From positions 1 through 54,000 of the forward strand of contig JAFIGB010000312.1 of the NCBI GenBank assembly GCA_020831705.1: DNA of 54,000 nt. Direction: 5' to 3'. This document shows, in pieces, positions 1,476 through 51,852 of this stretch; within the stretch, counting starts at the first letter, position 1, and the number at the start of each line of letters is the position of its first letter. Origin of the DNA: Candidatus Sumerlaeia bacterium. Its GTDB lineage: Bacteria > Sumerlaeota > Sumerlaeia > SLMS01. The notes beneath the pieces are model-generated. The model did no database searches. It was not told the origin of the DNA and was given only the letters and a program-made list of their open reading frames with translations. The translations under genes were made by a program, and so were the position numbers.

Positions 1476-4400
1476 CCGGCGGTGACCCGGCCCGCCAATC
1501 GGATTCCCGTCCCATCCAGATAGAGCAGCGCCGTTGATCCCGCCACGCCTCCCAACGCCAGAAAATCCGTGCCAACAAGATATCCCGGCGATTCCATTCT
1601 TGTTGGCATTTCCCCATCCTCCTCAATAACGTGGGAGCAAATCAGGCTTCCATCCGGCTCCAGAACAAGCCACGCCCCACCGTCCGGCGCCCGCAGGGAA
1701 AGACCGCCGTCCATGCCAACGGTCACACCCGGGGGAGGATCCCCGCTGTCGACGGTGATGGCCCCATGTATATACAAGTTTCCGGACGCATCAAGGCTAC
1801 CCAGGTGTCCTTCGCCAACGAGGAGTACAAGACCACCATCCGCGAGCCACCTGCCAAAGGCATCCTCCCCCACCATGACTGGCATCCAAAAACGGACGCT
1901 CCCAATCTCCTGCCCGAGAACGCCATCCCCAAGTTCCACGCCGGTCACCTCGCCAAGTGCCCTCCAGGGAGGAACAGGGGAGGTGGGCAGCCGCAGGACA
2001 GGATCATCACCCGGTGACAGGCGCTCCATGGAGATCATTCCCGACTCCACATGACCCGTGGATATTGCCCGGGATTCAAGGGCGCGGACCAAATGCCCCG
2101 AACCGGAAAGGAGCCAGCGCAACGCAGGCGATGGCGGTACCCCATGGACAATGGAGGCGTCCAATGCGATACCGTCATGGCGTATCAATCGATGGGCACC
2201 CAGCGACTGGGAAGGATGCACGGCACGGGTGGAGAACCCCGGTTGATAGACACTTCCGCCAGGTAGCTTCACCCCGGGCGATTGGGCGGGATCCGGTGTA
2301 TAGACATCGAACCGCCACTTCCCCGTCCACCAGCGCAGGCCAAGAAGCCCCTCGGCAAGGGCCGTCTCCATGGCATCGGACACCGCATCCGCCCCCTGAA
2401 TGACGGCTCCAAACCCCATGTGGCGTGCGGTGCCGGCATCCCGGGCATCATCCACGGACGATTCGTCGAGATTCCCGCCATCCAAGCCCCCAAGCAGGGG
2501 ATCCATCAGCATGGAAACGATGGCATCTGCCGGGTTGGCGAGGCCGCCGTTGCCGACTCCACGACCCGCGACAAGGGCATGGATGGAGGTGGATGGCGCC
2601 ACCGATGTTGCGGGACGCAGTTCAGCCACCCACTGGACATCACGCAGGCGCAACGTCCAGGGACTGCCGGGCGACACCCCGGCGAGGACAAACCGAATCC
2701 ACGGACTTCCACCGTCGGGGCCAAGAAAGGCCATCCCCTCCCCTTCCTCCAGCAGGTGGGTAACCTCCAGACGGCCACGAAAGGCGACGATGGGCATGGT
2801 GGCCAGCGCCGTGACTGAAAGAGGGGAGGAAACGCCGACGGGTGCGGGCGGGGCAGCGCCACGGACCTCCAACGACGGTGTTTCAATGAACACATCCCCG
2901 CCGTCGGGAAGCTCCACCGCATATTCGGCGGCCGCATTTGTATAGTCAGCCCGATCCACAGGATTTGTCGGCTCCAGAACAAAAAAAAGGAGCTCCGTGC
3001 TGTCGGCTCCGACGGTGAAAATGTCCTCGTCGGCAACCATTCCATCAATCTTGATGCGCAGACGTATATCCACGGGGTCGGCATCATCCCTGTTGGTGAT
3101 ACGCATCGACAGGCGAATCCTGTCGACCTGCTCCGGGAGGTTTTCATTCGTCTGGATTCCACAAGAAATGCCCACCTCCGTGGATTGGTTAATTCCGTAT
3201 CCCTGCCGGTGTATATCGCCGATGATTTCCGAGTGAATGGCCCAGGAGCCGTCCAGCACCATGGGTGTCGATGGGGCGCGGTGCCAGCGTATATAAAAAC
3301 CGTCGTCCTTGTCGGGAACATCGGCACTCCCCGCTGCCGGGGCATCCTCCAGGCGGTACCCCTGGCCAATATTGATCATGGCCACCCGGCTTCCCTTCCC
3401 CACCATGACCTGCAGCTGGCCGCCGTCCTCCCAGAAGGCGCTTTCCGTGAAGTAAAACTCAAGGAACAGGCGCTCAACGAGGGCGTGGCGACGGTTCCCG
3501 ATGGATTGGTCCTTCGTATAGATGGCTTCCAATGTGTCACTTCCATGCTGCAAAAGCGCCCCCGCGCTCGCCACCTGGGCCGGGAAGGCATTGTTCCCAC
3601 CGAAGGAGCTGTTTTCTCCGGTGAGGCTCCAGCTCCCCTGGCCGTCACGGAGCGGTGTCTCGACGGAATCCCGCCCATGGAGAACACGAAGGGGGAGCGC
3701 ATCACGGGTGAAAAGCAACCAGTCGCGTCCGCCAGCATCCTCCTGCTCCACGGTGCCATCGACAATGGGACCGGACTCCAAATCGTCCATCCGTGTTTCC
3801 TCCACCGAGCCCGGATGATCGGCAACACACCAGCGAAGTGGCGTTTCGGAAAGGCGCAATACGGAGGCACCCCGTGGATGTTCCCGCGGCGCCGGGCGGG
3901 TCACAAATTGCAGGCGATCGGGATGTTCCATGTCCCATGTATATCCAATGACTTCGTCCTGAATCTGCACGGTCCCTTCGGGTGGCCAGGAAACCGGCCG
4001 AAGAAGAAGCGCCTCCGTCGCAGCGACGTCAATATCCTCCCCAAGTTGACCCCGTTCCACATGGAAAAGGGGAACACCATGTACCCACATCGTCCCAAAC
4101 ACCTGGGGAAGCAAGCGGTCATCCGAAAGGTCGGCAATGAATTGGGAGCGGCGGCGACAGAGGGGCCTTCCTCCGTTTGGGTAACCGTGATGAAAACGAA
4201 GTACCCACACCATGTCTTGACGCCGGATCTCGTGAAGGCGACCGATACAGATTTCAATCCATTCTGCATCGGGTTCGACACGGAGCGAAAGCACCGCCAT
4301 TACCGGAAGTGCCTTCTCCACCCCCGCCAGCAGCAACAGCGTGGGGAGCTCCTGATCCGTGGCGAGCTTGACGGTGAATTCCCCCCGGAGCGTACGCCGA

Positions 4401-4528: not shown

Positions 4529-5493
4529 TCCTCCTGATTCAGAAAAGGATCAAAACTTTCCAGATGATTGGCGTCCCACTCGATGACAAGCCCATCCCGC
4601 TCCCCCGCCTCCAACCTCAATAGGGAACCCTCACGCAATCCACCATGGGGCGTGACGAGGAGGAACGACTGGCGGTCCTTTCTTTCGCGAAGGAACGCCT
4701 CCACGCCCTCCTGTATATTCTTCCGGCATGGATATACATGCCAGTGCACCCGTTCCCGCCATTGGCCGAGGAGCACTTGATGGCGATTCCCCCCAAGGTC
4801 ACGAAGGTTCCTCGACCATTCCTCCGGCGCGACAACACGCTTCTCCCGGATACCCCTCCCCAGTTCCACGCCATCCCCAAGTGTATAGATCACGGTGCCT
4901 GATTCCAGGGGGCGAACAAGTGGCTGTTCCAGGTGCAGGACACCATCTCCAGCAGTCATTTTCCCCGGGGACCACGCCCCACCATTGGCAATGACCCCGG
5001 TCATTTCCTCCCCGTCAATACCCTCCAGAATTGTGAAGGCTGTAATTTCATCGTTCCCCTCGGGCACTTTCTCATCCAACTCGAAGGCGGGCGAGGCTTG
5101 TGTGTATATACCTGCCGGGCGTTGAGCAGTGCCCGGGAAATGGGTGACAAGGTCAAGAATGATCCCCCGCACCAGCGGGTCGCCATCATGGCGCCGAAAG
5201 GCCTCAACCAGGGCGAAACCTGCCTCCAGTGCATCCGTGAGCTTGATCGCCGCCCGGACAAGTTCCTCCTCCTGGAAAGCGACCGACAATTCAAGGGACC
5301 AGGCCATGGTGCCATCCCGACGGAGCCCCCCCGTGAGCAAACGCGCCTCGGGAAGCCTGCGAATTCCCTCCTTCGACGCCTGCACACCCGGTTGCAGGCT
5401 TGCAAGAACATGCCAGCCGGGGAGGCATTCCCTGATGGCGTCGAGAAGGTGCTCCTTCATGTCCAGAATGTCATGCAAATCGGTGAATGGCAT
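4525..5493 (-). CDS. Phage neck/virion-associated hypothetical protein (322 aa)
   Basis: ATG at 5493 lies 6 nt after the DUF1320 stop, and the stop overlaps the next start (ATGA). It occupies the position of Mu gp37-type (DUF1834-like) neck proteins, but the sequence itself is not recognised. Confidence 0.5.
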   Translation of the reverse strand: MPFTDLHDILDMKEHLLDAIRECLPGWHVLASLQPGVQASKEGIRRLPEARLLTGGLRRDGTMAWSLELSVAFQEEELVRAAIKLTDALEAGFALVEAFRRHDGDPLVRGIILDLVTHFPGTAQRPAGIYTQASPAFELDEKVPEGNDEITAFTILEGIDGEEMTGVIANGGAWSPGKMTAGDGVLHLEQPLVRPLESGTVIYTLGDGVELGRGIREKRVVAPEEWSRNLRDLGGNRHQVLLGQWRERVHWHVYPCRKNIQEGVEAFLRERKDRQSFLLVTPHGGLREGSLLRLEAGERDGLVIEWDANHLESFDPFLNQEE

Positions 5494-5499: not shown

Positions 5500-5910
5500 T
5501 CACCATTTTCTCAGGATGGGGTTGCGGCGTGGGGGTGGTGTGTTTGTTCCATCCACACGCCTCCCTGGTGTATATCCGGGAACGGGATGGCGCCCCGCTG
5601 CCATTTCCTCCAGGATTTTCCGTGTTCGTACCGCACGTTCCGACCAATGCCCGGGAATCATTTCCCGCCGCCGATGAAAGAGATACTCGACGGCGAGCGT
5701 CACCGCATGGTCGACAAGGATTGGGTGGAGCACGGCGGATTCGTCTATACAATGGGGGGCAAGCATGGCACGCACCTCCCGTTCCCCGGATTCCAGGGCG
5801 CCCTGCAACACGTCAGGGCCGGGAAGGCCGGGATCGCCATCCTCGGAAAGCGCCGCGAGAACATCCGCCGACAAGGCCGACAGCAATTTTGCGGAGGAAA
5901 TCATCATCAT
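5500..5910 (-). CDS. DUF1320 (Mu gp36-like) head-tail connector protein
   Basis: MMMISSAKLLSALSADVLAALSEDGD...VLQGALESGEREVRAMLAPH...HAVTLAVEYLFHRRR...RKILEEMAAGR fits the DUF1320 pattern. I prefer the ATG cluster at 5904-5910, which has an AAAGGA SD, over the ORF-track start at 6015, which would overlap the capsid gene. Confidence 0.65.
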   Translation of the reverse strand: MMMISSAKLLSALSADVLAALSEDGDPGLPGPDVLQGALESGEREVRAMLAPHCIDESAVLHPILVDHAVTLAVEYLFHRRREMIPGHWSERAVRTRKILEEMAAGRHPVPGYTPGRRVDGTNTPPPRRNPILRKW

Positions 5911-5980
5911 TCCTTTCAGGGGAAACCGGGGATGCCATGGGAGCACCCCCGGTGGATTGCTCAATGGATTGCAGGTGGGA

Positions 5981-6922
5981 TCAGGAAACCGCGTTGCGCA
6001 GGATATACCCCGCACCCGGGGCGACGATCTTCTGGTCGTAATACTTCTGGACCCGGATCATAGTGGCCTTGCGGCGTTCCTCGCGCCAGGTCTGGACGCT
6101 GCTCCCGCGGCTGCTGCCAAGGGCCTGCCCCCAGATGAACGTCAACGCCGGGGCAACCATCTTGAGCGACGGGCGCTGCGGCACGTGAAGAAGGAGGACA
6201 TCATCACCCCAGATCGGCGCGAGATCCGGTTCCTGGCCCCGGGGAGCCACGTTCTGGAAGGCGCGTGCCACGAGGACCTTTTCGACGTCGAACAGTTCCG
6301 CCAGGACACCGGTCCCCACGACCCCGAGGCTTGAATACTTCACGCGCTCGACGATCTTCGGGTGGTTGCGGGCAACTGTATAGACGGAATGGGGAAGCAC
6401 GAGCACATTCGGCACGGCCTGCACCGCGGCGAGAATCGCATCCCGCCCCTCCTCGATCTGGGCCACGGGATCCACGCTGCTGTCATTCCAATCCTGCCCC
6501 GTCTGCCCAAGATCCACCCCGGGAAGGTTCCCCGGTTTGCGAAGAACCCCGGCAAGGTTTGCCTCCTGGTTGAGGAGAATCTTTTCGGTGAGAAATTCCA
6601 CGCGCTCAACCTGGGGCTGGAGGGGCGCATCGGCATTTTCCCGCTCCTCATCGGGGAGGGCGGATTCCAGGGCGTGATCGCTGCAGTAATACGAGTCCGA
6701 ACTGAGGGCGAAATCCACCTCGGTGGCCTCGGTCCCGGGAGCACGACCGTCCCACGTGGACCGGATCGTCTCCCGTTCGGGATCATGGATGAAGTAGCGG
6801 TCGCTTTGCTTGCGGACGCTGACCTCCGGGGCCAGTTCCCGGGCAATGAAGCCCGGATTGCGGTAGGCGATGCTCACGTTGGTGAGCGCAACATCGTAGT
6901 GGACGCTGTGAACGTCGGGCAT
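5981..6922 (-). CDS. HK97-fold major capsid protein (transposable-phage / capsid E type)
   Basis: N-terminus ...ALTNVSIAYRNPGFIARELAPEVSVRKQSDRYFIHD...RAPGTEATEVDF is the signature I associate with this major capsid family. Length is 313 aa. ATG 6922 is preceded by an AGGAAGG SD. It sits between decoration-like and connector genes. Confidence 0.75.
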   Translation of the reverse strand: MPDVHSVHYDVALTNVSIAYRNPGFIARELAPEVSVRKQSDRYFIHDPERETIRSTWDGRAPGTEATEVDFALSSDSYYCSDHALESALPDEERENADAPLQPQVERVEFLTEKILLNQEANLAGVLRKPGNLPGVDLGQTGQDWNDSSVDPVAQIEEGRDAILAAVQAVPNVLVLPHSVYTVARNHPKIVERVKYSSLGVVGTGVLAELFDVEKVLVARAFQNVAPRGQEPDLAPIWGDDVLLLHVPQRPSLKMVAPALTFIWGQALGSSRGSSVQTWREERRKATMIRVQKYYDQKIVAPGAGYILRNAVS

Positions 6923-6962
6923 TGTATATACCTTCCTTTCAGGTTTTCGTGAAGGGTTTCAA

Positions 6963-7646: not shown

Positions 7647-7678
7647 GATGATCAAGCCTCCATCGTGTATAGATTGAT

Positions 7679-8458
7679 TTACGTGGTGGCGCCAAGGAGC
7701 GCCGTTCGGTAGTCGAGTTCGGGGTTTTGCGCCATGAGGCCAAGGGCACGGAGGTGGGCCTCGGCGGAGGCCGGTTCGGAGACGCCGCACAACCCCGCCG
7801 AAAAGGATGCCGTCGCCTCCGTCATGATCTCCTCCCGCGCACCCGGTGTTACGGGAACGGGAGGAACGGACAACACGGCAACAAGGCGGTTGCGGGCTTC
7901 ATCGCCGGGGAGATGGGCGAAAAGGTCGAAGACCCCTTCCTCCTCCCAGCGCGGGTTCCAGGTGCCCGCCTCCTCCAGCGACTTGCGGATGGCGCCGCGA
8001 TCCACTTCCGCTTCCGGCACCGGCTCGGTTTCGAGGGTAAACGAGACAATGTCGGCCTCATCGGTGGAAAAGGCGGGATCGGCAAGACCGCTTACCCGGG
8101 GCGTTGCCGCGCCAAGAAAGCTGACCGCCTTGAGGTATGGCGCTCCGGTGTCACGAAAACGGCGGAAAAGCTCGACGCTTCGCTTGCGAAAGGCACCGGA
8201 CCGAACGGCCTCCACAAGGGCGGGGCTGAGACGCCCGAGCCGTGCCACCAGCCGGTCGCCAACGACCTTCAACCCCGCAACCCAGCCATGGGCGGGACCA
8301 TCCTGGGCGTGGTCGATGGTCACCGGCGCCTCGTGGAGGTCCGGGTTGTAGTTACCGGCAACACGGGCCAGGTCGTCATCTGTATAGACGCCCCGGGCAC
8401 CATAATCGCCGCTTCGGAAGACCTCAATTTCGAGTTCATCCTCGTTTGGATTCACCAT
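7679..8458 (-). CDS. Mu gpI-like head maturation protease/scaffold
   Basis: ATG 8458 with an AAAGGAG SD. N-terminal ...VFRSGDYGARGVYTDDDLARVAGNYNP..APVTIDHAQDGPAHGWVAGLKV resembles the Mu-like prophage I protein family. It lies immediately downstream of the portal gene. Confidence 0.6.
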   Translation of the reverse strand: MVNPNEDELEIEVFRSGDYGARGVYTDDDLARVAGNYNPDLHEAPVTIDHAQDGPAHGWVAGLKVVGDRLVARLGRLSPALVEAVRSGAFRKRSVELFRRFRDTGAPYLKAVSFLGAATPRVSGLADPAFSTDEADIVSFTLETEPVPEAEVDRGAIRKSLEEAGTWNPRWEEEGVFDLFAHLPGDEARNRLVAVLSVPPVPVTPGAREEIMTEATASFSAGLCGVSEPASAEAHLRALGLMAQNPELDYRTALLGATT

Positions 8459-8509
8459 CTGAATCTCCTTTCCTGAATTTGGGCCTTTGTTGTGTGGGAA
8501 ACGGGCCGT

Positions 8510-9955
8510 CTATACAGGCCGGTTCCCCGTGTCCTCCCGGGATCCCGGGACCCCCTCGACACGGACGCCATGGTCGGCCGTCCGCATTCCTCCCCAGGGA
8601 ACGGGGGGAAGCTGGAGCCGCTCGCGGACCTCGTTGATCGTCAGCACACCAAACTGAAGGTGATACTGGTAGAAGTTCGCATCGTCGTATTTGAGGGGAA
8701 GCTCGCCCGGCTGGGGTGCGGGGCGACCATATCGTGTATAGAAGTAGGATTGAGGCAGGGAAACACCCAGCCCGAGGAGGGCCTGGTCCACGCGAATCCG
8801 CTGATATAGATCCTCCGGCCCCTCGGTTTCGATGGCAAGACGGGGGCGGGGCGCATCAGCGGGGAGGTTTGCCTCGCAAATCCAGCCAATCAATGTCTCG
8901 TTGATCGTTGTTTCCAGAAGCCGGGCATCGGCATCAATATAGTCCTGGCGAACGAGCTGGTGGATGTTTCCAAGGGCCAGCGACCCGCTTCTTCGCCCCT
9001 CGCCACTGGTGAGCGTCGCCCCGAGGATGATCTTCGACATCTCGTCGTTGCACCAATCGAGGAGATCCCGATAACAGCGCCCATCACCGGAACGATTCGA
9101 CTCCAAGAGTTGAAGACGGATGCTTTCGGGGAGGATCACATGGGATTCCGCGTGGAGGGCATCGAGGATTTCGGTCAGGCGGCGCTGGTCCTCGCCGCTG
9201 ATCCCCGGGGCGCAGGTCGCCACGGTGGTCGGCGATCCATGTTTCTCGTTATAGACACCCCACGACTTGAGGGCATTTTTCTTGAACCAATACATCCAGT
9301 AGGCGTGTTGGGCGAGGCCGCGTCCGTAGGGATTGCGAAAATCCGCCCCGAATGTCAGCGCGATGAACTTCCTCGGAGGCGCCGGGAAATGCTGACGCGC
9401 GGGAATGGGATGACGGCCCGGGCCTTCTGTCCCATCCACCTCACGCGCCCTTGAGCTGGAACGGAATGGCGGCGAAAGCAGGTTCAACCCACCAGCCTGG
9501 TCGAGGAGGAACCACTCCTGCGGATGGGCGATCCAGTTGACGGGAACAAGGTGCCCCGCGCTGTTGTAATCCCAGACGAGTTCCACCACGGAAAAGCCCT
9601 TGGAAATTGCCTCCAACAGGGCACGCAGAAGCCCCTCAAAACGGGGAATGGAATGCAGGGCATCCTCGACAAATTGCGCGGCATGGCGTGCCGTTTCATC
9701 CCCCGACCGGGCAGGAAGCACCTGGCGGGGAAGTCCCAGCAGCCCATTGAGACGTGTCTGAAGGAGGGAAAAAAGATGCCCGTCCTTTTCCTCCATTTCG
9801 GCATACAACTCATAAACGGAGCGATGGACCCGCCCCGAAGAGGATTCAGCCTGCAGCAACGCCACGGGCGATCGATCATCACGAAGCCCCTGGCCCGCCC
9901 ACCATTGCTCGGCGGGGTTGACCAGCGGCTGGACTTTTGCAGATGGGCTTGGCAC
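8510..9955 (-). CDS. Phage portal protein, DUF935 (Mu gp29-like)
   Basis: 481-aa ORF with a GTG start at 9955 and a GGGAGGA SD 5 nt upstream. Size, position and sequence character match DUF935 portals (family assignment by recognition, not search). Confidence 0.7.
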   Translation of the reverse strand: MPSPSAKVQPLVNPAEQWWAGQGLRDDRSPVALLQAESSSGRVHRSVYELYAEMEEKDGHLFSLLQTRLNGLLGLPRQVLPARSGDETARHAAQFVEDALHSIPRFEGLLRALLEAISKGFSVVELVWDYNSAGHLVPVNWIAHPQEWFLLDQAGGLNLLSPPFRSSSRAREVDGTEGPGRHPIPARQHFPAPPRKFIALTFGADFRNPYGRGLAQHAYWMYWFKKNALKSWGVYNEKHGSPTTVATCAPGISGEDQRRLTEILDALHAESHVILPESIRLQLLESNRSGDGRCYRDLLDWCNDEMSKIILGATLTSGEGRRSGSLALGNIHQLVRQDYIDADARLLETTINETLIGWICEANLPADAPRPRLAIETEGPEDLYQRIRVDQALLGLGVSLPQSYFYTRYGRPAPQPGELPLKYDDANFYQYHLQFGVLTINEVRERLQLPPVPWGGMRTADHGVRVEGVPGSREDTGNRPV

Positions 9956-11813: not shown

Positions 11814-13025
11814 TCACTCCTCCCCTCCAGCGTGGTGGGAGAGGTATTTGTCGATCGCCGCGCGCTGGCGGTCCGGGTAATCTTCGTAATCCATGTCCAC
11901 CAGTGCCTGGGCGAAGCCTCCCGGGTAGAATTCGTTGAGGAGTGAGGGCATTTCCATGAATCGGTACTGGTTGCCCGAATCATGGGCGTGGGTGGACGGC
12001 TGACCGGGCGTGGAGACGGAGGTGGAGTCGGGGAAGATATTGCGGAAGTTGAAAAAGGCGGATGGAACTTCCTCCTCGTCGAGAAAGCCCATCTCCTTGA
12101 TAGTCACGCGAAACTTTGATTCGTAGGGGCAGGTTCCTTCCGTGTTTCCACCGGTGCAGGTCCAGAATGTATAGACACGGGGCAATCGCAGGCCATTGAT
12201 TTCCGTGTACTCCTCGACCGTCATGCTTCGCTTCAGCCGACCCGGGTCGGAGGTGCTGTACCACTCGATGCTCCGTAGGGCGCCGTCGGTGTGGATTTCA
12301 AATCGTGGTTGCTCCTTGACGAAACCCGGTTCGCGCTCGGGAATGGTAACATTGATTTGAAAACTTTCGGGATCCACCCTTTGGATGGAGTGGCGATGGA
12401 GACCAAGGGCGTGTTGGAGGATTTCATCGGGGTTGGTGGCGGCGAGCCACTTTTCCTGGGCCTCACGCTGGTCGTCCACATGGGTGAGTTGCAACCTGGG
12501 GTTAAGAATCTCATGAAGATCGTATCCCACGGGACGTGGCACCGTCATGGCCTTCATTGAAAATCGTGAAATGGCAAAGATCGGTCGATCAGAATAGGCG
12601 ATGGGCCAAGGAGCGCTGTGGTTCGTGCCAACCCCGCCTTCATTCATGTCCCACCAGTAGGAATGTTCAACACCATCACGGGCGGCCATATAGCGGCGTG
12701 CTCGCTGGGTGTCGGGTTTTTCGGGATCACGCCGGGCCAGAATTTCAATGGCCAGGTTGTCGCCTTGGATGAGTTCGACAACCAGTTCCCGGGTGTTTCC
12801 CGATAAATCCGCACCGTCTTCCACGCGCAGGAGGTTTTCCCGCTCATAGATAAAGTAGGCGCCATTGTTGAGCATTTCAGCTCGTGTTTGCAGCCCTGCC
12901 AGGGCGTGGTCGAGGGCGTGGTCGTCAAGTCCGTCAATGGCCGTGGCAGCCATTGGAAAAAACCCCATGGAGAGGACAAGGGAGATCCGAAAAAATCGGC
13001 CCCCTGCCGGAGCGATCATGTTCAT
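11814..13025 (-). CDS. Secreted hypothetical protein (403 aa)
   Basis: I prefer ATG 13025 (MNMIAPAGGRFFRISLVLSMGFFPMAATA, signal-peptide-like) over the ORF-track start at 13094. No family recognised. Confidence 0.6.
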   Translation of the reverse strand: MNMIAPAGGRFFRISLVLSMGFFPMAATAIDGLDDHALDHALAGLQTRAEMLNNGAYFIYERENLLRVEDGADLSGNTRELVVELIQGDNLAIEILARRDPEKPDTQRARRYMAARDGVEHSYWWDMNEGGVGTNHSAPWPIAYSDRPIFAISRFSMKAMTVPRPVGYDLHEILNPRLQLTHVDDQREAQEKWLAATNPDEILQHALGLHRHSIQRVDPESFQINVTIPEREPGFVKEQPRFEIHTDGALRSIEWYSTSDPGRLKRSMTVEEYTEINGLRLPRVYTFWTCTGGNTEGTCPYESKFRVTIKEMGFLDEEEVPSAFFNFRNIFPDSTSVSTPGQPSTHAHDSGNQYRFMEMPSLLNEFYPGGFAQALVDMDYEDYPDRQRAAIDKYLSHHAGGEE

Positions 13026-18476: not shown

Positions 18477-18496
18477 GTCAGGCCTTTCAGGGTGGT

Positions 18497-20153: not shown

Positions 20154-20155
20154 CC

Positions 20156-23136: not shown

Positions 23137-23196
23137 AATTCCGGGCAGGATGGGGGACGAAAATCAGGGCTCGGGAATTTTGACGGCCCTTTTTGC

Positions 23197-24875: not shown

Positions 24876-24897
24876 TTACCAACCCGCCCCCATAAGC

Positions 24898-35241: not shown

Positions 35242-35268
35242 ACAAGGTTTTTAACACCCCGGCAGAGG

Positions 35269-42744: not shown

Positions 42745-43089
42745 ATGGATCTTGAAAGAATGAGCGATCAGGCTTTACTTGGAGAACTGGGGCGGCGTGT
42801 TCAACGGGAACGGTTGAACCAGAACCTCCGGCAAGTAGACCTCGCCAAGCGGTCCGGCTTGTCGGTCCGTGCCATCCGGCGTCTGGAGGCGGGGGAAGGG
42901 GTCACGTTGGAAAATTTCCTTCGGGTGTTGCGCGGCCTCGGGCGGTTGGGTCAGTTGGATAATTTCCTTCCCGACCCCGGCTACAGCCCGATTCAACTGG
43001 CCCAGTTGGCGGGATCGGTTCGGGAGCGCGCATCGCCCTACGGGCGGGAAAGGAAAAAGCACGATGGCGAAGAAATACAGGAAGGTTGA
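42745..43089 (+). CDS. hipB: HipB-like XRE-family HTH antitoxin
   Basis: LRQVDLAKRSGLSVRAIRRLEAGEGVTLENFLRVLRGLG is a Cro/C1 HTH. It lies directly upstream of, and overlaps, the hipA-like gene. Confidence 0.8.
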   Translation: MDLERMSDQALLGELGRRVQRERLNQNLRQVDLAKRSGLSVRAIRRLEAGEGVTLENFLRVLRGLGRLGQLDNFLPDPGYSPIQLAQLAGSVRERASPYGRERKKHDGEEIQEG

Positions 43090-44389
43090 TGTCGCCTCTA
43101 TTACCCTTTGGGGCCGGGAAGTGGGGGCCATTGCCTGGGATGATGGCCGGGGCACGGGAAGCTTTGAGTATACTCCCGAGTTCGCCCGGTCGGGACTGGA
43201 AATCTCCCCCCTCAAAATGCCCTTGGCGGCAGGGCGGTTCTACCAGTTTCCCGAGCTGAACCGCCAGACCTTCCATGGTCTCCCGGGGTTGCTCGCCGAT
43301 GCCCTCCCCGACAGGTTCGGCAACCTCCTCATCGACCAATGGCTTTCCCGGCAGGGAAGAACCGCCCGGGAGTTTTCCCCCGTCGAGCGTCTTTGCTACA
43401 TGGGGTCCCGTTCCATGGGTGCCCTTGAGTTTACGCCGGCGCTGCTGAAGAAGCGGCAGGGGAACGACACCCCTCTTGAGGTGGCCGAGCTTGTCCAGCT
43501 TGCCCGGGAGATTCTCAAAACCAAGGGCCAGCTTTCCACCAGCTTCATGGAGGATCGCGAGGAGGCGCTGGAGACAATCCTGCGGGTGGGAACATCCGCC
43601 GGCGGCGCCCGCGCCAAGGCCGTCATTGCCTTCAACCCCACCACGGAGGAGGTCCGTTCCGGCCAGATAGACATCCCACCCGGTTATGAGGCGTGGCTGC
43701 TCAAGTTCGATGGCGTCGACGGCGACCACCTTGCAACCCCCGCCGGATATGGACGGATTGAGTACGCCTACCACCGCATGGCACGGGCGGCTGGAATCAC
43801 CATGGAGGATTGCCGTCTGCTCCCCGACCGCGGAGGACGGAGCCACTTCATGACACGGCGTTTCGACCGTCTTCCCGGAAACAGGAAGCTCCACATGGCC
43901 TCCCTTTCCGGTCTTGCCCATTACGACTTCAACCAGCCCGGAGCCCATGGTTACGAGGATGCCTTTGCCGTCATGCGCGAACTGGGCCTCGGCTACGATG
44001 CCGCCGATGAAATGTTCCGCCGCATGGTCTTCAACATCCTTGCCCGCAATCAGGACGACCACCCCCGCAATATCTCCTTCCTCATGGATGAGGCGGGGCG
44101 GTGGAGCCTCGCACCCGGTTACGACATCACATGGAGCTACAACCCGCGGGGGGATTGGACGTCCCTTCATCAGATGACGGCCAACGGCAAGCGCGACGGG
44201 TTTACCCGCGAGGATCTCCTTGCGGTTGCCGAAAATGCCGGGGTGAAAAAGCCAATGGACATCATCCACCAGGTCGTAAGTGCCGTGGCTGACTGGGAGG
44301 AATTTGCCGAGGCCGCAAGCGTCCCCACCGCCATGATCCGCTCCATCAGTGAAAGCCACCGCCTCGACCTTGCACCAAGAGCTTTATAG
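43064..44389 (+). CDS. hipA: HipA-family serine/threonine kinase toxin
   Basis: ATG 43064 (MAKKYRKVDVASITLWGREVGAIAWD = HipA N-terminal coupling domain). SHFMTRRFDR, then NQDDHPRNISFLM (HipA_C catalytic motif). 26-nt overlap with hipB. The ORF-track start 42869 is rejected. Confidence 0.85.
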   Translation: MAKKYRKVDVASITLWGREVGAIAWDDGRGTGSFEYTPEFARSGLEISPLKMPLAAGRFYQFPELNRQTFHGLPGLLADALPDRFGNLLIDQWLSRQGRTAREFSPVERLCYMGSRSMGALEFTPALLKKRQGNDTPLEVAELVQLAREILKTKGQLSTSFMEDREEALETILRVGTSAGGARAKAVIAFNPTTEEVRSGQIDIPPGYEAWLLKFDGVDGDHLATPAGYGRIEYAYHRMARAAGITMEDCRLLPDRGGRSHFMTRRFDRLPGNRKLHMASLSGLAHYDFNQPGAHGYEDAFAVMRELGLGYDAADEMFRRMVFNILARNQDDHPRNISFLMDEAGRWSLAPGYDITWSYNPRGDWTSLHQMTANGKRDGFTREDLLAVAENAGVKKPMDIIHQVVSAVADWEEFAEAASVPTAMIRSISESHRLDLAPRAL

Positions 44390-44526
44390 ACAACGCCCCG
44401 TCGAAGCAATTGCAGCAGGACACCCAATGGCCATCTCACTCGATCTTGGCAACCGAATCATCAATACCTGGAAAAGGGGCGACTCGATCCGCAAGGGAAT
44501 CGCCGAGCGCCACGACAACATCCGCG

Positions 44527-46479
44527 TCAGCGACGAAGAGTACCACCATGCGTTTCCGCCTCGAGGTAAAAGGATTCGAGCGGCCTATATCCCAGTTCTT
44601 CCATCAATTCATCCCAGTTATCGGGCAGGTCGATCCTGATCGTGACATTCCCGCCGCCGGGCATGGTTTGAACCTTGTTTCGGTCGGGATCGCCGGCGAT
44701 GAGGATGGGGGTCATTCCTCGTCTCATCACAGGAACAGTGTGGATTTTTTCCGCGCCGGGGAGGTTGGGAAACCAGGGGGGTGCCTCGGTGAGTGCTCCG
44801 CTCTCCTGGCGCATAATGCGCTGGTAATGCTGTTCGAAGGAGTGTCTGGAGGGGTCGTGGGCGCTGCCGGGGCTGGCCCAGTAGTTCGCGAATGCCCGTT
44901 CGTAAACTGGCCGACGAGCGGTGTCCATCAGGGCGTTTTCGAGGCTTTCCTTGGATGTATAGACACGGGCCAGATCCTGCGCTATGTGTTCGGTGATCAT
45001 AATGGTGCGATAGGTGAAGGGCATTCCGCTGCCGACGCCGAACTGACTTTTTTCCACCACATCCCAGGCGAACAGGTTCTTGACATCTTCCGCGTCCGGC
45101 GTTGCGGGCGTCAGGTTGTTCCCCCACATCAGCGCCGTTGCGCCGGTCACGGTGCTGTCATTCAGATCATGTCCCCTCTGGACATGGAAGGGCATCCAGC
45201 CGATCCGGAGACACGCCTCCTCGTCCTCAGCCATGGTCCAGGACATTGGATAGCCGAAGCTCCCCATGCGGTCCTGTTTGACGTAGTATCCAGCAAGGTT
45301 CATGACGGCTAGATTGATATATCTTCCGAGAGCAGCATTGCGTGGCCCGGAAACCATCCCCGATTGGGCATCAAAACCGAGTTGCCGGGCGACGGGACCG
45401 TTCACCCAGGCGTAGGGAATCCATCCGTGGGTGCTGCCGAGACTTCGCCGGTGGCTCGGATCCGCGAGAACCTTTGTATAGGCGACGAGTAACGGCATGA
45501 ATTCGGGAGGGCATCCCGCCATGACGCCGTTCGCCGCAACATGCCAGGCGAGGGTTTCCCGATGGGCGATGGGGAGCACGCCCACCGAGTCGTCCCACGC
45601 GAGGTCCGTATAGCGGAGGAACTCCTCGATCCTCTGCTGCGTCGGTGGAATAATCGGCAAACCGTCAGACCAGCGCATCTCCGCAAAATGGCGGTTCACC
45701 TCGTTTAGGTTCCCCGTATATACAACTCCCCGGACGTCATCGACGACGGCCTTGCGGTGCTCGGCAATCTCCTCCTCCGTGATCGGCCTGGTCAGGGCAT
45801 CCACAATCTGTGGCCAGAGAACCTCCCGGGTGTTTCGGAGCAGTTCCTCTCGCGAATGAGCCGCGAACGGCCCCGGATAAGTCGCCGTCCGGGGCACGGG
45901 AATGCCATTGTTTACCCCTGTCGAATGAACCTGATCGACAAAACCCGGACCAGCAATCGTAACGGCAGGTATAGCAATATACTCCGCCGCAATGCTGGAG
46001 CCAGCCTCCTTGGGAGTACAAAGACCGCAGCCCCCGTTTCCGGAAATCACCGCATCGACCCCCATTTCACGCAGGTTCCTTTGGAAATCGTCCTTCGAGC
46101 GCCGGGAAATGCCTGGACCGGGATAGGCGCCGGCGGAACCGATTTCATTCAGCAAAATCACCTTCGCCGTCGGGTAATTCGTCAGGATCAACCTTCTGAT
46201 TTCGGGATGGGTCACGCGCGCCATAAAGCTGCCGCCCACAACAGCGACCGTCTTCCCTTCCAGGCTCTCCAATCGCGGCGCCTGCTCGATCATGGTAACA
46301 ACCTGCCTGCCCACCGGCGCCACCACGGCGTACTTGCCAGCTTCGATCTCCACCGTGCCCTCCTCCCCGGCCATTTCCACGGGACAAAGTTCACACTCCT
46401 CCGCGACCATCGAATATCCGCTCCCCCCAAGGTTCAGCAACAGGGCGAGGGCCATCATAACAGGCAACTTTGCGATCAT
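44527..46479 (-). CDS. Secreted two-domain hypothetical protein; N-terminal domain carries a GGCGLCT (Cys form of a UGSC-like redox motif)
   Basis: ATG 46479 with a GGAGA SD gives MIAKLPVMMALALLLNLGG. GKTVAVVGGSF...VDAVISGNGGCGLCTPKEAGSSIAAEYIAIPAVTIAG recalls UGSC/GrdB-like selenoprotein-type domains. The C-terminal half (LPIIPPTQQRIEEFL...VAANGVMAGCPPEFMPLL) is not recognised. Confidence 0.6.
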   Translation of the reverse strand: MIAKLPVMMALALLLNLGGSGYSMVAEECELCPVEMAGEEGTVEIEAGKYAVVAPVGRQVVTMIEQAPRLESLEGKTVAVVGGSFMARVTHPEIRRLILTNYPTAKVILLNEIGSAGAYPGPGISRRSKDDFQRNLREMGVDAVISGNGGCGLCTPKEAGSSIAAEYIAIPAVTIAGPGFVDQVHSTGVNNGIPVPRTATYPGPFAAHSREELLRNTREVLWPQIVDALTRPITEEEIAEHRKAVVDDVRGVVYTGNLNEVNRHFAEMRWSDGLPIIPPTQQRIEEFLRYTDLAWDDSVGVLPIAHRETLAWHVAANGVMAGCPPEFMPLLVAYTKVLADPSHRRSLGSTHGWIPYAWVNGPVARQLGFDAQSGMVSGPRNAALGRYINLAVMNLAGYYVKQDRMGSFGYPMSWTMAEDEEACLRIGWMPFHVQRGHDLNDSTVTGATALMWGNNLTPATPDAEDVKNLFAWDVVEKSQFGVGSGMPFTYRTIMITEHIAQDLARVYTSKESLENALMDTARRPVYERAFANYWASPGSAHDPSRHSFEQHYQRIMRQESGALTEAPPWFPNLPGAEKIHTVPVMRRGMTPILIAGDPDRNKVQTMPGGGNVTIRIDLPDNWDELMEELGYRPLESFYLEAETHGGTLRR

Positions 46480-46822: not shown

Positions 46823-48796
46823 TCAGTCGCCGTATTTTTCCTCGTAGGTTTCCCGCAGGTTCGCGACCACATTGGCATCAGCCAGCGTGGTGGTGTCGCC
46901 CAGGGCGCGTCCTTCGGCGATGTCGCGGAGGAGGCGGCGCATGATCTTGCCGGAGCGCGTCTTGGGCAGGTCGGCGGTGAAGAAGATGTCCTCGGGCCGG
47001 GCAATGGGGCCGATGATCTTCACGACGTGCGCCTTGAGTTCCTCGCGCAGTTCCGGGCTCGGTTCGAAGCGTGACTTGAGGGAAACGAAGGCCACGACGG
47101 CCTGGCCCTTGATTTCGTGGGCCTTGCCAATGACGGCGGCCTCGGCGGTGGCGGGGTGGTCGACCAGGGCCGATTCCACCTCCATGGTGCCGATGCGGTG
47201 ACCCGAGACGTTGAGAACGTCGTCGACGCGGCCAAGGATCATGATGTCGCCGTCCTTGTCGATCTTCGCACCGTCGCCGGGGAAGTAATACTTGCCGCCC
47301 CACTTGCTGAAGTAGGTCTCCACGAACCGATCATCATCGCCGTAGATGGTGCGCAACATGCCCGGCCATGGCTTGCGGATGGCAAGGTAGCCCGAGCCTT
47401 CCTTGATTTCCTCGCCATTTTCGTCCACCACGGCGGCGTCTATACCGGGGAAGGCGGGACCGGCGCTGCCGGGCTTCATCTTCGTCAGGCCGGGAAGGCC
47501 GGTGATCATGTGGCCACCTGTTTCCGTCTGCCACCAGGTATCCACAATCGGGCATTTACCACCGCCGATGATTTCGGAGTACCAGATCCACGCTTCGGGG
47601 TTGATCGGCTCGCCGACGGAACCCAGAAGGCGAAGGGACGACAGGTTGTGCTTTTGCGGAAGGGTGCGGCCCCACTTCATGAAGGCGCGGATCGCCGTGG
47701 GCGCTGTATAGAACACGGTGACATTGTGGTCGGCGACCATCTTCCAGAAGCGGTCCTTGTCGGGGAAGTCCGGCGCGCCCTCGTACATGAGGCAGGTGGC
47801 GCCAAGCTGGAGGGGACCGTAGACGATATAGCTGTGTCCGGTGACCCAGCCCACGTCCGCCGTGCACCAATAGACATCGTTGTCCTTCAGGTCGAAGGTG
47901 TACTTCGAGGTCACATACGTCTGCACCGCGTAACCGCCCGTTGTGTGGACGATGCCCTTGGGCTTGCCGGTGGTTCCCGATGTATAGAGGATATACAGCA
48001 TGTCCTCGGCGTCGAGTTCCTCGGGGGGGCACTCGGGGGCGGCATCAGCCATCATGCGGTGGTACCAGTGGTCGCGGCCCTCCTGGATGTGGCAGGGGAA
48101 CGGCTCGCCAAGGGGACGCTTCACGATGACGACATTTTCAATGGAGGGGCACTTTTCCAGGGCGATATCCGCATCGTGCTTGAGCGAGACGACCTTGCCG
48201 CGCCGCCAGCCGCCGTCAGCGGTGATGAGCAGCTTGCATTGCGAGTCGTTGATGCGGTCCGCCAGCGAATCGGGGCTGAAACCGCCAAAGACGATGCTGT
48301 GAACGGCGCCGATGCGGGCGCAGGCGAGCATGGCCACGGCGGCCTCGGGAATCATCGGCATATAGATGGCAACACGGTCACCCTTGCCCACGCCAAGGTG
48401 CTTCATGGCGTTGGAAAACTTGCAGACTTCCCGGTGGAGCTGGAGGTAGGTATACGTCCGCCGATCCCCCGGTTCCCCTTCCCAGATCAATGCGGCCTTG
48501 TTGCGGCGGGCCGACTTGAGATGAACGTCGAGGCAGTTGTAGCTCAGGTTCATCTTCCCGTCCACGAACCACTTCACATGGGGGAAATCGCCTTCGCGGA
48601 CCTTTGTCCAGGGGGAAAACCAATGAAGGTTTCTTGCTTCCTCGGCCCAGAACGTCTCCGGTGCCTTCGCGGCATGATCATAAATAATCGGGTCATTTGC
48701 ATTCGCCTGGGCGGCAAAATCCGCGGGGGGAGGAAAGACGCGCTCCTCGTGGAGAAGGTCGTCCATCACGGTTTGTGGGTCGGGTGTCATTCTCAT
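46823..48796 (-). CDS. acs: Acetyl-CoA synthetase
   Basis: [14 protein letters not shown]-binding motif and full-length similarity in character to Acs (WWQTETGG, ..[16 protein letters not shown]). The second ATG (48790) has better SD spacing and may be the real start. Confidence 0.95.
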
Positions 48797-48987: not shown

Positions 48988-51852
48988 TTAACCCCGCAAT
49001 TCCACCAGTCGGGCCTTGATCGCTTCCATGTCGGCCTCGTATTTCGCCAGCTTTTCCCGCTCCTGGACCACGACGGCCTCCGGGGCGTTGGCGACGAACT
49101 TCTCGTTGGCCAGCTTCCCGCGCGTCCCCTGGACACCCTTCTCCAGCTTGCCGAGTTCCTTCTCCAGACGGCTGACCTCCGCCTCGCGAAGCTCCCCAGG
49201 GAGGGGCACCTGCACCACCAGATCGCCCTTCACCGCCTTGCTCGCGAAGGGAAGAACGCCCGGTGCCGCCACCACCGTCATTTCCTTCACGGAAGCAAGG
49301 GCGCGGATCTGCATGGCCGCCTCCTCCAACAGGGCGCGGATCGCTCCATCGGGGTGGCTGAACTCCACGTCCACCTTCATTTCCACGGGGACCGTCATCT
49401 CGCCGCGGATGTTGCGCACCATGTATAGCGCCTCCTGGAGGAGGTCAATGCCGTCGCAGGCCGCGGCGTCTGTATAGACACGGCCCTTTGGCCACGGGGC
49501 AACGCACAGGGAAGGCGCCTCGAAGTTGTCGACGAAGGGGAGCGCCCCGGGCCGCAATGTGGCGGGTTCGACGGGCACGCCCGTCTCCACACCGGCAAGC
49601 CTGGCGCGAAGCAACTGCCAGATTTCCTCGGTGGCGTGGGGAATGACCGGATGAAGCATCCGAAGAACGTGCTCCAGGACGGTGAGGAGCACTACCTTCG
49701 CCGCACGGGTCGATTCGGGCGTGGTGCCCTCCTTGCCGTAAACGCGGGGCTTTGTCAGTTCCACATACCAGTCGCAGTAGTCATCCCACAGGAAGTGATA
49801 CAGCGATTGTATATACTGATCGAATGTATACTCATCCAGATGGCGCGTGGCGGTGGTGATGGCGTCGGAAAGGCGGGAAAGAATCCACCGGTCCTCGCGC
49901 TGGAGGGAGTCGGCGGAAACGCCGCCACGGAACTCCTCCGGGGTGATGTCCGCCGTTGCCGTGAGCACAAAGCGCGACGCGTTCCACAGCTTGTTGATGA
50001 AGTTGCGGTACCCGGCAATGCGATGCTTGTCTATCTCGATGGTACGCCCCTGGCCGCTGTACGCGATGAGGGCACTGCGTACCGAGTCCACGCCGAATTG
50101 GTCGAACATGTCGAGGGGGTCGATGACGTTCCCCTTCGACTTAGACATCTTCTCCCACTTGAACTCGATGCCCTTCGGGGGCGAGTCCATGTCGTCGAGA
50201 CAAAGCTCCCGGCGCTCGGTGGGGGAGATCAACTCCATGTCGCCGCCGCGCCTGCGGTAGAACGACTTGCCGAAAATCAATCCGTGGAGATAGACCGTAT
50301 GGAACGGCACCTTCTTGAGCAGCCCCTTCGACATCATGATCATCCGGGCGACCCAGAAAAACAGAATGTCGTGGCCGGTGACGAGGACCGACGTGGGGAA
50401 GAACTTGCTCATGTCGTCGGTGTCCTCCGGCCACCCCAGAACGCTGAAGGGCCAAAGTGCCGAGGAAAACCACGTGTCCAGCACGTCGGGATCCTGCTCC
50501 CAGGCATCGGGGTCCGCCGCCACCTCGGGGGGAAGACCCTCCCCATCCCAGCAGACCATTTCCGCGCGATTGTCCCGTCTATACCAAATGGGAATGCGAT
50601 GTCCCCACCAGAGCTGTCTTGATATACACCAGTCGCGGAGGTTGTCCATCCAGGCGAAGTACGTGTTTTCCTGCGCCTTGGGGATGATGCGGGTTTCGCC
50701 GTTGTGGACGGCATCCGCCGCCAGTTTCGCCAGGGGTGCGACCTTCACAAACCACTGGTCGGATATACGCGGTTCCACAATGGCCTTCGACCGGTAACCG
50801 CGTCCCACACGGTGGGGATGCTTTTCAATCTTTTCAATAAGGCCCAGCGCCTTGAGATCCTCGACAACCTTCTCCCTGGCCACATACCTGTCCAGCCCGC
50901 GGTATGCCTCCGGCGCGTTGTCATTCACCACCGCCGTGTCGGTGAAAATATTGATCAGTTCCATATTGTGGCGCTGGCCGCAGGCAAAGTCGTTCGGATC
51001 GTGGGCCGGGGTGATCTTCACCATGCCCGAACCGAACTCCTTCTTCACAAAATCATCGGCAATGATCGGAATCTTTCGCCCCGTCAGGGGAAGATCCACC
51101 GTTTGGCCCACAAGGGCTGTATAGCGCCCGTCGCCGGGATTGACCGCCACCGCCGTGTCACCAAGGAGGGTTTCCGGCCGTGTCGTTGCCACCACCGCGT
51201 ATCGGCCGCTGCCGTCGCTGAACGGGTAGCGAATGTGCCACAACTGCCCTTCCTCGTCCTCATACTCCACCTCATCATCCGCCAGCGCCGTTAGCGACAC
51301 GGGGTCCCAATTGATCATATACTTGCCGCGATAAATCAGCCCCTCGTCATACAATGTCTTGAAGGCCCTGCGGACGGCCTTGGCGCGGTCGTCGTCGAGG
51401 GTAAAGGCCTCCCGCGACCAATCACAGGAGCACCCAAGGCGCTTGATCTGGTTTGTAATGCGGGCGTGATATTCGTCCTTCCACTTCCACACCTCGCTGA
51501 CAAAGGCCTCGCGTCCCATTTCCTGACGGGTGCGACCCTCGGCGCGGAGCTTCTCCACCACCACATGCTGAGTGGCAATGCCGGCATGATCCGTCCCCGG
51601 CACCCAAAGGGTCTCATCGCCCGCCATGCGATGGTAGCGAATGAGCACATCCTGAATCGTCTGCACCAACCCGTGTCCGAGGTGGAGAACCCCGGTCACA
51701 TTGGGGGGGGGAATAACGATGGTGAAGGTGTCCCGATCGGAGGAATTGTCGGCACCAAAGAAGCCCTGTTGCTCCCAAAAGGCCCTCCATCGCTCCTCCG
51801 CCTCGACCGGCTGGAAATTCTTGGGAAGCTCGCCATCAGTTGTCATAGTCAT
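48988..51852 (-). CDS. valS: Valyl-tRNA synthetase
   Basis: PPPNVTGVLHLGH (HIGH), KMSKSKGN (KMSKS), and a C-terminal coiled-coil. 954 aa. Confidence 0.95.
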   Translation of the reverse strand: MTMTTDGELPKNFQPVEAEERWRAFWEQQGFFGADNSSDRDTFTIVIPPPNVTGVLHLGHGLVQTIQDVLIRYHRMAGDETLWVPGTDHAGIATQHVVVEKLRAEGRTRQEMGREAFVSEVWKWKDEYHARITNQIKRLGCSCDWSREAFTLDDDRAKAVRRAFKTLYDEGLIYRGKYMINWDPVSLTALADDEVEYEDEEGQLWHIRYPFSDGSGRYAVVATTRPETLLGDTAVAVNPGDGRYTALVGQTVDLPLTGRKIPIIADDFVKKEFGSGMVKITPAHDPNDFACGQRHNMELINIFTDTAVVNDNAPEAYRGLDRYVAREKVVEDLKALGLIEKIEKHPHRVGRGYRSKAIVEPRISDQWFVKVAPLAKLAADAVHNGETRIIPKAQENTYFAWMDNLRDWCISRQLWWGHRIPIWYRRDNRAEMVCWDGEGLPPEVAADPDAWEQDPDVLDTWFSSALWPFSVLGWPEDTDDMSKFFPTSVLVTGHDILFFWVARMIMMSKGLLKKVPFHTVYLHGLIFGKSFYRRRGGDMELISPTERRELCLDDMDSPPKGIEFKWEKMSKSKGNVIDPLDMFDQFGVDSVRSALIAYSGQGRTIEIDKHRIAGYRNFINKLWNASRFVLTATADITPEEFRGGVSADSLQREDRWILSRLSDAITTATRHLDEYTFDQYIQSLYHFLWDDYCDWYVELTKPRVYGKEGTTPESTRAAKVVLLTVLEHVLRMLHPVIPHATEEIWQLLRARLAGVETGVPVEPATLRPGALPFVDNFEAPSLCVAPWPKGRVYTDAAACDGIDLLQEALYMVRNIRGEMTVPVEMKVDVEFSHPDGAIRALLEEAAMQIRALASVKEMTVVAAPGVLPFASKAVKGDLVVQVPLPGELREAEVSRLEKELGKLEKGVQGTRGKLANEKFVANAPEAVVVQEREKLAKYEADMEAIKARLVELRG

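Follow-up and report, generated by a model that had tools for sequence, protein, structure and literature searches.

How does a short AT-rich word come to stand far above its expected frequency, mostly inside genes, in a GC-rich bacterial chromosome, and what keeps it there? We asked this of a contig from a Candidatus Sumerlaeia metagenome-assembled genome (MAG), whose 54 kb as a whole are here called the window, and of the octamer GTCTATAC (reverse complement GTATAGAC; below simply the word), to which a sequence-only reading of the window had drawn attention. Exact matches to GTATAGAC numbered 16 in the window, 12 on the plus strand and four on the minus strand, and the 9-mer TGTATAGAC was counted 14 times (12 plus and 2 minus). 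The sequence-only reading had given the same 16 copies, the same 12:4 division and the same 14 extensions to the 9-mer, and all its coordinates were correct except a start printed as 17813, a typographical slip for 17803. Dinucleotide-preserving shuffles gave an expectation of 0.23 copies with a largest value of 2, and Markov models of order 0, 1 and 2 expected 0.99, 0.15 and 0.16, so the strong over-representation claimed at the outset was reproduced (16 copies where 0.2 to 1 would be expected). At orders 4-6, Markov models placed the expectation near the observed count and were discounted, as models of those orders in 54 kb are trained on, and dominated by, the word itself. When all 8-mers of the window were ranked de novo, TGTATAGA and GTATAGAC led the ranking, and relaxed variants of the word, also described earlier as common, were enriched ~4-fold.

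The word is a property of a subclade and not of a single contig. For comparison we fetched the neighbourhoods of the valyl-tRNA synthetase (ValRS) gene from other genomes, each locus covering 14-23 kb around that one gene. A ValRS scan of genome contigs yielded two Sumerlaeota loci, with the remaining 78 used as controls, and a metagenome scan with a Sumerlaeota ValRS alignment, whose patterns were too universal, contributed L085, a distant Sumerlaeota locus, together with a further 79 controls. In all, the sampled clade DNA came to ~210 kb, of which the pooled word count covers 147 kb, and the GC-matched controls comprise 915 kb. The density of GTCTATAC per 10 kb was 3.0 in the window, 4.4 in L165 (ValRS 71% identical to that of the window), 2.2 in L166 (72%), 1.6 in L167 (68%), 2.8 in L001 (68%), 1.4 in L081 (88%), 1.3 in L170 (67%) and 2.0 in L171 (69%), compared with 0.02-0.04 in unrelated bacteria of similar GC. 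The count was zero in the Sumerlaeota loci at 58-60% ValRS identity (L168, L169 and L085), and the boundary of presence was sharp, falling between ~60% and 67% identity. Over the 147 kb of the clade pool the word occurred 40 times against 0.48 expected, a density 124 times that of the GC-matched control DNA. De novo it ranked first among the 8-mers of L001, L165, L166 and the window itself, and each of the seven other Sumerlaeia loci with a ValRS identity of 67% or more had it either as the top 8-mer or in strong excess. The word-positive assemblies (GCA_964346275.1, GCA_964420455.1, GCA_020848155.1, GCA_965610335.1 and the MAG of the window) stem from different studies and assemblers, which excludes an assembly artefact; the word-negative assemblies were GCA_020444065.1 and GCA_019634695.1. 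Searches of the literature on the word, on Sumerlaeota genome features and on new uptake sequences brought up no earlier description. Among hyper-abundant words, it is set apart from its nearest relatives by its AT-richness in a GC-rich genome, its asymmetric yet dyad-like form, its sharp subclade limit and its match to an operator core.

Two further loci deserve mention. L002, from a Sumerlaeota MAG of 49% GC with a ValRS 68% identical to that of the window, held two perfect copies in 23 kb and five copies of GTCTATAT/ATATAGAC against 0.42 expected, which may be another dialect or reflect decay of the word as the genome shifted towards AT. L022, from an unrelated Cryomorphaceae MAG (Bacteroidota, 51% GC), held GTCTATAC/GTATAGAC at 5727, 5844, 14509 and 20803, that is, 4 copies in 21 kb against 0.3; this excess is marginal once corrected for the ~160 control loci, and the word is not the top word of L022.

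Pressure on the DNA was visible in the codons. When codons were permuted within each gene, a synonymous shuffle that leaves all proteins and the codon usage of each gene intact, the sense strands of the window carried GTCTATACA 9 times against 0.21 expected and GTATAGAC 4 times against 0.15 (~27-fold), and since both orientations exceed the shuffle expectation, proteins and codon usage do not account for the word. The tripeptide Val-Tyr-Thr (VYT) was encoded as GTC TAT ACA in 9 of its 10 occurrences in the window, a recount that agrees with the sequence-only reading, and in the 49,000 codons of the clade VYT occurred 26 times against 5.05 expected (~5x), 24 of the 26 reading GTC TAT ACN (92% occupied). 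The remark that TAC and ACC serve for Tyr-Thr elsewhere was right only in part, as TAT-ACA makes up 22 of the 40 Tyr-Thr pairs of the window, 13 of them outside VYT; among Val-Tyr pairs GTC-TAT makes up 18 of 34. Frames other than that of VYT require CTA, ATA or AGA and were 0-17% occupied: in the clade the word filled 7 of 41 [SRGC]-I-D positions, where ATA is 4% of Ile codons, 3 of 25 x-Y-R-[LPHQR] positions, where AGA is 2% of Arg codons, and 3 of 31 [SRGC]-L-Y positions, where CTA is 1.3% of Leu codons. The Cys-Ile-Asp, Gly-Ile-Asp, Leu-Tyr-Arg and Trp-Tyr-Arg readings and the two overlaps with stop codons described earlier were all found as stated. Several frames are indeed used, but the statement that the word is read in all three was too strong, with 9 of the 14 in-gene copies of the window sharing one frame.

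The same pressure reaches the proteins. In a codon alignment of ValRS orthologues, copies lay at non-homologous positions among lineages. Some sites were made with rare synonymous codons, as where the window has TGG TAT AGA CGG and L081 has TGG TAC CGC AGG (both WYRR), or where the ValRS gene of L165 has CGT CTA TAC and the others have CTC or CTG. Further sites in this gene involved amino acid replacements, namely VYG to VYT (L165 and L166), TID to CID (L166) and QYV to VYT (L167). The word also seems to recruit stop codons, for three of the seven TAG stops in the window lie inside TA-TAG-AC (8510-8512, 35239-35241 and 44387-44389). The stop-embedding forms were GTA TAG AC and TTA TAG AC in the window and GTC TAG AC in L165 (4830-4832); GTA TAG AC is found at gene ends because TAG blocks that frame within genes. 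About 90% of copies were intragenic, at a coding density of 2.5 per 10 kb compared with 2.7 in intergenic DNA. Based on these data, it is very probable that a directional force on the DNA itself maintains the word, whatever its orientation, and this force is strong enough to impose the very rare codons ATA, AGA and CTA, to swap amino acids and to raise VYT five-fold. The original suggestion of selection on the DNA word, rather than on a peptide or on codon usage, is supported by the shuffles, the rare-codon gains, the replacements and the clade-wide presence.

The form of the word offers a lead to what reads it. Of the 40 pooled copies, 37 have a pyrimidine at -1 and 35 have a purine at +9, giving Y-GTCTATAC-R. 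At the ninth base 14 of the 16 window copies have A, while those of L165, L166 and L170 mostly have G, in effect a dialect of each lineage. In its symmetry the word is quasi-palindromic, GTMT|AKAC (family GTMTAKAC, full motif YGTMTAKACR), and its dominant form GTCTATAC is not self-reverse-complementary; perfect palindromes are minor forms but strongly enriched, with nine pooled sites of GTATATAC and two of GTCTAGAC. The half-site word TGTCTAT(C) was enriched as well and was the top word in L081. One-base variants fell mainly at positions 1, 3 and 8 and left the central TCTATA almost invariant. From the quasi-palindrome and the enrichment of its palindromic relatives and half-sites, we infer that a sequence-specific protein, acting as a dimer, probably recognises the word in duplex DNA. 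For GntR regulators of the HutC subfamily the operator consensus is NyGTMTAKACNy (PMC4494728), a HutC operator has been given as TGTA-N2-TACA (PMC12977541), and the dre site of NagR/DasR includes GGTCTAGACC (PMC4333415). This match to the GntR/HutC core suggests a type of reader, as a resemblance and not as membership. A second over-represented word, TGTCTATC(T), occurred 9 times against 0.3 expected in the window and was the top 8-mer family in the nearest relative, L081, where perfect GTCTATAC copies were fewer; its appearance is that of a half-site standing alone (TGTCTAT), or of a dialect of the L081 lineage.

The orientation of the copies follows the genes. Coding DNA in the window amounts to ~36 kb on the minus strand against ~10.5 kb on the plus strand (three quarters minus), and minus-strand genes hold 9 of the 12 plus-strand copies, each of them read as GTC TAT ACA. 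The strand bias of the window arises because every frame but GTC-TAT-ACR would call for a very rare codon or a stop, and most genes are on the minus strand; by itself, the 12:4 asymmetry is weak (two-sided binomial ~0.08 by our own calculation). Over eight loci, copies were 13 co-oriented against 6 in plus-strand genes and 3 against 14 in minus-strand genes, for a total of 27 sense and 9 antisense copies within genes. This sense preference came solely from the VYT frame, with the other two sense frames at 3/59 and the two antisense frames at 10/66. The strand asymmetry is therefore a by-product of coding cost and not of replication, and the short loci leave room for a weak replichore skew superimposed on the gene-strand effect.

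Our best reading of these results is that the word is a lineage-specific abundant recognition word, of the type of highly iterated palindrome 1 (HIP1) or of the uptake signal sequence (USS) and DNA uptake sequence (DUS), kept by selection or molecular drive. For its function we favour, tentatively and with a probability of roughly 0.35, a tag of kin DNA in uptake or recombination. Word-bearing fragments would be preferentially taken up or recombined in natural transformation, and that preference would let the word spread through molecular drive, selection or both, a mode that is that of USS and DUS and has lately been proposed for HIP1 in cyanobacteria. The fuller version, in which the Sumerlaeota subclade would have evolved its own kin-DNA word (YGTCTATACR) with a GntR/HutC-type winged-helix dimer as reader, independent of Proteobacteria and Cyanobacteria, we hold to be speculative and rather doubtful as a whole. 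If it were true, the drive would be rewriting proteins, with a 5-fold VYT excess, Cys and Arg-AGA substitutions and recruited TAG stops.

Several points weigh against a kin tag. Neither competence genes nor a receptor or a methylase came to light in these genome fragments of uncultivated organisms, where no test was aimed at uptake bias, a receptor or competence genes, and the main paper on Sumerlaeota genomics does not mention competence. USS and DUS are ~3x denser than the word, which stands at one copy per 3-4 kb; they are also non-palindromic, whereas the word is dyad-symmetric. There was no intergenic excess (2.7 against 2.5 per 10 kb) and, unlike with DUS, there were no terminator-like inverted pairs, the single hairpin at 8508 lacking a T run. 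A phage-like head module at 5.5-9.9 kb is the densest part of the window in the word, which under an uptake drive is unexpected for imported DNA unless the module is old. Between three related pairs, 3 of 9 sites were shared at 59-74% third-position identity, too few to tell selection from drive, and all loci beyond the window are 14-23 kb pieces and not whole genomes.

Two of the rival explanations turn on strand and frame. The sequence-only reading had likened the skew to that of Chi or of the FtsK-orienting polar sequences (KOPS), and a polar word of this kind would be read on a single strand by RecBCD/AddAB or FtsK and be co-oriented with replication. The 12:4 ratio (12:2 for the 9-mer) favours one strand of a window that, from its GC skew, appears to lie within a single replichore, the two in-gene copies of a plus-strand RNase_H_2 gene hold the majority DNA orientation, and the density of the word resembles that of Chi in E. 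coli. But orientation followed the gene strand (Fisher p=0.003) and neither the G-rich strand (29:17, p=0.10) nor the direction of ValRS (26:20, our own tally), L165 with its mixed gene strands stood at 4:6, the ~100-fold enrichment far exceeds that of Chi, and a quasi-palindrome with enriched perfect palindromes makes no sense for single-strand reading. RecBCD/AddAB and FtsK genes were not found within the window or the fetched loci, where no test was aimed at such recognition, and altogether we judge a polar word very improbable. An effect on translation or on the peptide, whether a preference for the codon pairs GTC-TAT and TAT-ACA or selection for Val-Tyr-Thr, agrees with the single frame of the 9/9 sense copies in the window, with the shares of TAT-ACA (22/40 Tyr-Thr) and GTC-TAT (18/34 Val-Tyr) and with the sense majority (27/36). 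It is contradicted by the ~27-fold enrichment (4 vs 0.15) of the reverse complement on the sense strand through ATA and AGA, by the use of the frame nGT CTA TAC even though CTA is 1.3% of Leu codons, and by the lack of conservation of VYT at homologous positions. Neither codon-pair nor peptide selection explains the antisense, stop-spanning and intergenic copies; as the sole cause a translational effect was rejected on these grounds and on the reverse-complement enrichment, and it is hardly credible otherwise.

In the biased-repair model that Elhai advanced for HIP1, a methyltransferase acting on part of the word, coupled with very-short-patch-like repair of near-cognates, would let the word accumulate neutrally wherever protein function permits. 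An orientation-neutral quasi-palindrome resembles a type II recognition site, deviations at the outer positions 1, 3 and 8 around a nearly fixed TCTATA repeat the pattern that Elhai reported for HIP1 (PMC4390886), equal coding and intergenic densities together with a dense phage-like module suit a process acting on all resident DNA, and sites turn over between relatives. We nevertheless consider repair drive unlikely, given that transition neighbours were not visibly depleted (very small counts), that sites often need 3-4 substitutions, including amino acid changes such as VYG to VYT, whose early steps single-mismatch repair would not drive, that a neutral process should fill intergenic DNA more than the equal densities allow, and that no DNA methyltransferase or Vsr-like gene was seen in the ~210 kb of clade loci, a small fraction of the genomes. 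Alternatively, the copies could form a site array for an abundant chromosome-organising or nucleoid protein, for example a GntR/HutC-like winged-helix dimer, with selection holding the number of sites at a certain density in the service of structure, segregation or self-marking against a nuclease. The core of the word is that of the HutC-subfamily operator, GTMTAKAC (PMC4494728; PMC12977541), and a role in chromosome structure has been argued for HIP1 by Xu et al. (PMC5861425). Half-sites are enriched alone, the density is uniform between coding and intergenic DNA, and the dense phage-like module would suit a self tag required of resident elements too. Against such an array, no candidate protein was identified and spacing in the window was no more regular than random (variance/mean ~1.2 on 6-kb bins). 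Site-specific organisers such as Noc, SlmA, MatP and ParB have tens of sites, and we know of no nucleoid protein with ~1000 specific 8-10 bp sites per genome; we give the array about as little credit as repair drive.

Individually, the copies of the window are as follows. Nine are minus-strand copies that encode VYT in minus-strand genes: GTCTATAC(A) at 2298..2305, read GTC TAT ACA in the gene at 1469-4504, and GTCTATACA at 6378..6385 (major head protein gene, 5981-6922), 8382..8389 (head maturation protease gene, 7679-8458), 12169..12176 (gene 11814-12953), 13841..13848 (gene 13597-15396), 17803..17810 (gene 15774-18458), 30477..30484 (gene 29390-31756), 44957..44964 (gene 44527-46458) and 49472..49479 (ValRS gene, 48988-51846, where the L081 orthologue reads GTC TAT CAG, VYQ). 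Three more GTCTATACA copies on the minus strand fall in a plus-strand gene with RNase_H_2 and tetratricopeptide repeat (TPR) domains (about 34120-35241): the copy at 34595..34602 is antisense and gives TGT ATA GAC (Cys-Ile-Asp), that at 34734..34741 gives TTG TAT AGA CTG (Leu-Tyr-Arg-Leu), and that at 35236..35243 reads GTA TAG AC on the plus strand, with TAG the stop of the gene (35239-35241). The four remaining copies are GTCTATAC on the plus strand, in minus-strand genes: 5743..5750, TGT ATA GAC (Cys-Ile-Asp, frame derived from coordinates) in the Mu Gp36-like gene at 5500-6015; 8508..8515, GTA TAG AC on the minus strand, with TAG the stop of the portal gene (8510-9865); 47438..47445, in the gene for acetyl-CoA synthetase (46823-48769), where it reads GGT ATA GAC (Gly-Ile-Asp) and is identical in the L081/L084 orthologue; and 50577..50584, the Trp-Tyr-Arg-Arg site of ValRS whose peptide is kept with other codons in L081. 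The copy at the portal stop forms the tip of a hairpin at 8485-8545 (-) of -22 kcal/mol (z = -1.95) that is not followed by a T run, a modest structure that is probably incidental.

The palindromic relative GTATATAC occurs at 1768..1775 (here TGTATATACA), 5104..5111, 6924..6931 (intergenic), 14373..14380, 45716..45723, where it forms the tenth VYT of the window as GTA TAT ACG, 49809..49816 (inside ValRS) and 53524..53531 (intergenic, at the low-GC contig end). A one-mismatch copy, TTATAGAC, at 44384..44391 (+) spans the TAG stop (44387-44389) of a HipA-like gene at 43064-44389 (+). This kinase gene follows a HipB-like helix-turn-helix gene, and together they form a toxin-antitoxin pair at 42745-44389 (+).

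Neither regular spacing nor clustering could be upheld, as neighbour distances of 121-174 bp occurred 4 times against ~2 expected, which is not significant, and a miniature inverted-repeat or other repeat element was rejected on the unrelated flanks of the copies. An 11-kb stretch at 17811-28795 contains no GTATA/TATAC pentamer on either strand; it is not a foreign island, since it carries housekeeping genes (sigma-54 activator, sugar epimerase, nucleotidyl transferase, ACP, FabF and cyclophilin), and very few Tyr-Thr or Val-Tyr dipeptides there probably explain the gap. At the RNase_H_2 locus, long open reading frames overlap on both strands (33619-35241, + and 34144-35184, -); family support was found only for the plus-strand frame (RNase_H_2 with TPR, E = 1e-27), and the minus-strand frame is its shadow. 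Here a simple gene caller based on codon scores chose the wrong strand, which affects the assignment of the three word copies at this locus.

The window as a whole is an ordinary piece of chromosome, encoding ValRS, acetyl-CoA synthetase, a GAF/PAS/GGDEF/EAL protein, PlsX, ACP, FabF and FabZ, and further LpxC, LpxI, Skp, a sigma-54 activator and HipBA. A phage origin was rejected, as megablast against a phage collection gave no match and the window is chromosomal DNA in which the Mu-like head module is a small part; a scan of viral contigs for the portal protein gave no match either. The module (5500-9865, -) comprises genes for a Gp36-like protein (5500-6015), a major head protein (5981-6922), an unknown protein (6963-7655), a head protease (7679-8458) and a Mu-type portal (8510-9865), all on the minus strand. 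It adjoins plsX (10135-11175) directly, its portal has no neighbouring terminase, and it gives the impression of a remnant prophage or of a module that was domesticated. The top local word density of the window is found here, with four copies in 2.8 kb (5743-8515). At the other end, the GC content falls to 47.8% over 52000-54000, a stretch that holds a Schlafen/AlbA_2-domain gene (52309-53508, +), two one-mismatch copies ATCTATAC, one TTCTATAC and one GTATATAC, with no perfect copies, and that may be a foreign or defence island.

Only a handful of genomic words are known to be hyper-abundant (USS, DUS, HIP1, Chi and KOPS), and each has informed on uptake, recombination or chromosome organisation. 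Sumerlaeota is a phylum with no cultured model or known genetics, in which the dyad symmetry of the word indicates a definable class of reader and the sharp boundary in ValRS identity makes phylogenetic profiling for the responsible genes feasible in public MAGs. The word could also be used as a compositional marker for binning and for the detection of foreign DNA in these genomes. Beyond this, it offers a clean case of DNA-level pressure reshaping proteins, and a caution that gene-strand effects can pass for replication skew.

Set beside known systems, the word differs from each in some respect. A codon-pair effect should be confined to the sense strand and to one frame, and here antisense copies (4 against 0.15) as well as stop-spanning and intergenic copies were found. 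With Chi and with KOPS and SRS (the words of FtsK and SpoIIIE) it shares an over-represented 8-mer, a Chi-like density and an apparent skew in the window, but the skew is one of gene strand and coding cost, the word is dyad-symmetric, AT-rich and not G-rich, and more enriched by one to two orders of magnitude. Leading-strand co-orientation of the Chi/KOPS kind was not found, where the direction of replication was judged solely by GC skew and by the direction of ValRS, in loci of short length. The operators of GntR/HutC regulators have a core to which GTCTATAC, GTATATAC and GTCTAGAC, with their Y and R flanks, correspond exactly, as a match of sequence only. Such operators stand at a handful of promoters, whereas ~90% of word copies lie in coding sequence at ~1 per 3 kb; no promoter regulon was seen, nor was a GntR-family gene found among the scanned window proteins or the loci examined.

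The closest likenesses are to the words of uptake and to HIP1. Like the USS of Pasteurellaceae and the DUS of Neisseriaceae, the word is enriched ~100-fold, occurs in both orientations, imposes preferences of tripeptide and frame, has enriched single-mismatch copies and marks a family-level clade with dialects, here a ninth base of A or G. Its excess over composition, in the ~210 kb of clade DNA sampled, and its lack of replication polarity are likewise those of an uptake sequence, while DUS are abundant in intergenic inverted pairs and the word is not, and neither USS nor DUS is palindromic. HIP1 (GCGATCGC) resembles the word in its lineage-wide octamer excess, its course through coding regions, its dyad symmetry and its outer-position variants, and its function has long been debated among repair drive, chromosome structure and transformation. 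It differs in being a perfect GC-rich palindrome, whereas the word is AT-rich in a genome of 59-66% GC and asymmetric (GTCT|ATAC), with a hetero form ~4-20x commoner than either perfect palindrome. HIP1 also reaches more than one copy per gene against one per 3-4 kb for the word, has cognate methyltransferases where none is known for the word and none was seen in our loci, and is lineage-wide where the word is confined to a subclade and does not extend to the whole phylum. The candidate roles of HIP1 are methylation-linked repair drive, chromosome structure and DNA uptake (PMC5861425; PMC4390886; bioRxiv 10.64898/2026.06.24.733823; bioRxiv 10.1101/2024.09.10.611283), the last in the recent proposal that it is an uptake sequence (bioRxiv 10.64898/2026.06.24.733823). 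HIP1 is over-represented 15-300 fold and has no peptide or RNA role (PMC5861425), and the excess of the word falls within the same 15-300 fold range and is likewise independent of peptide function, as seen in the shuffles, the controls and the frame counts.

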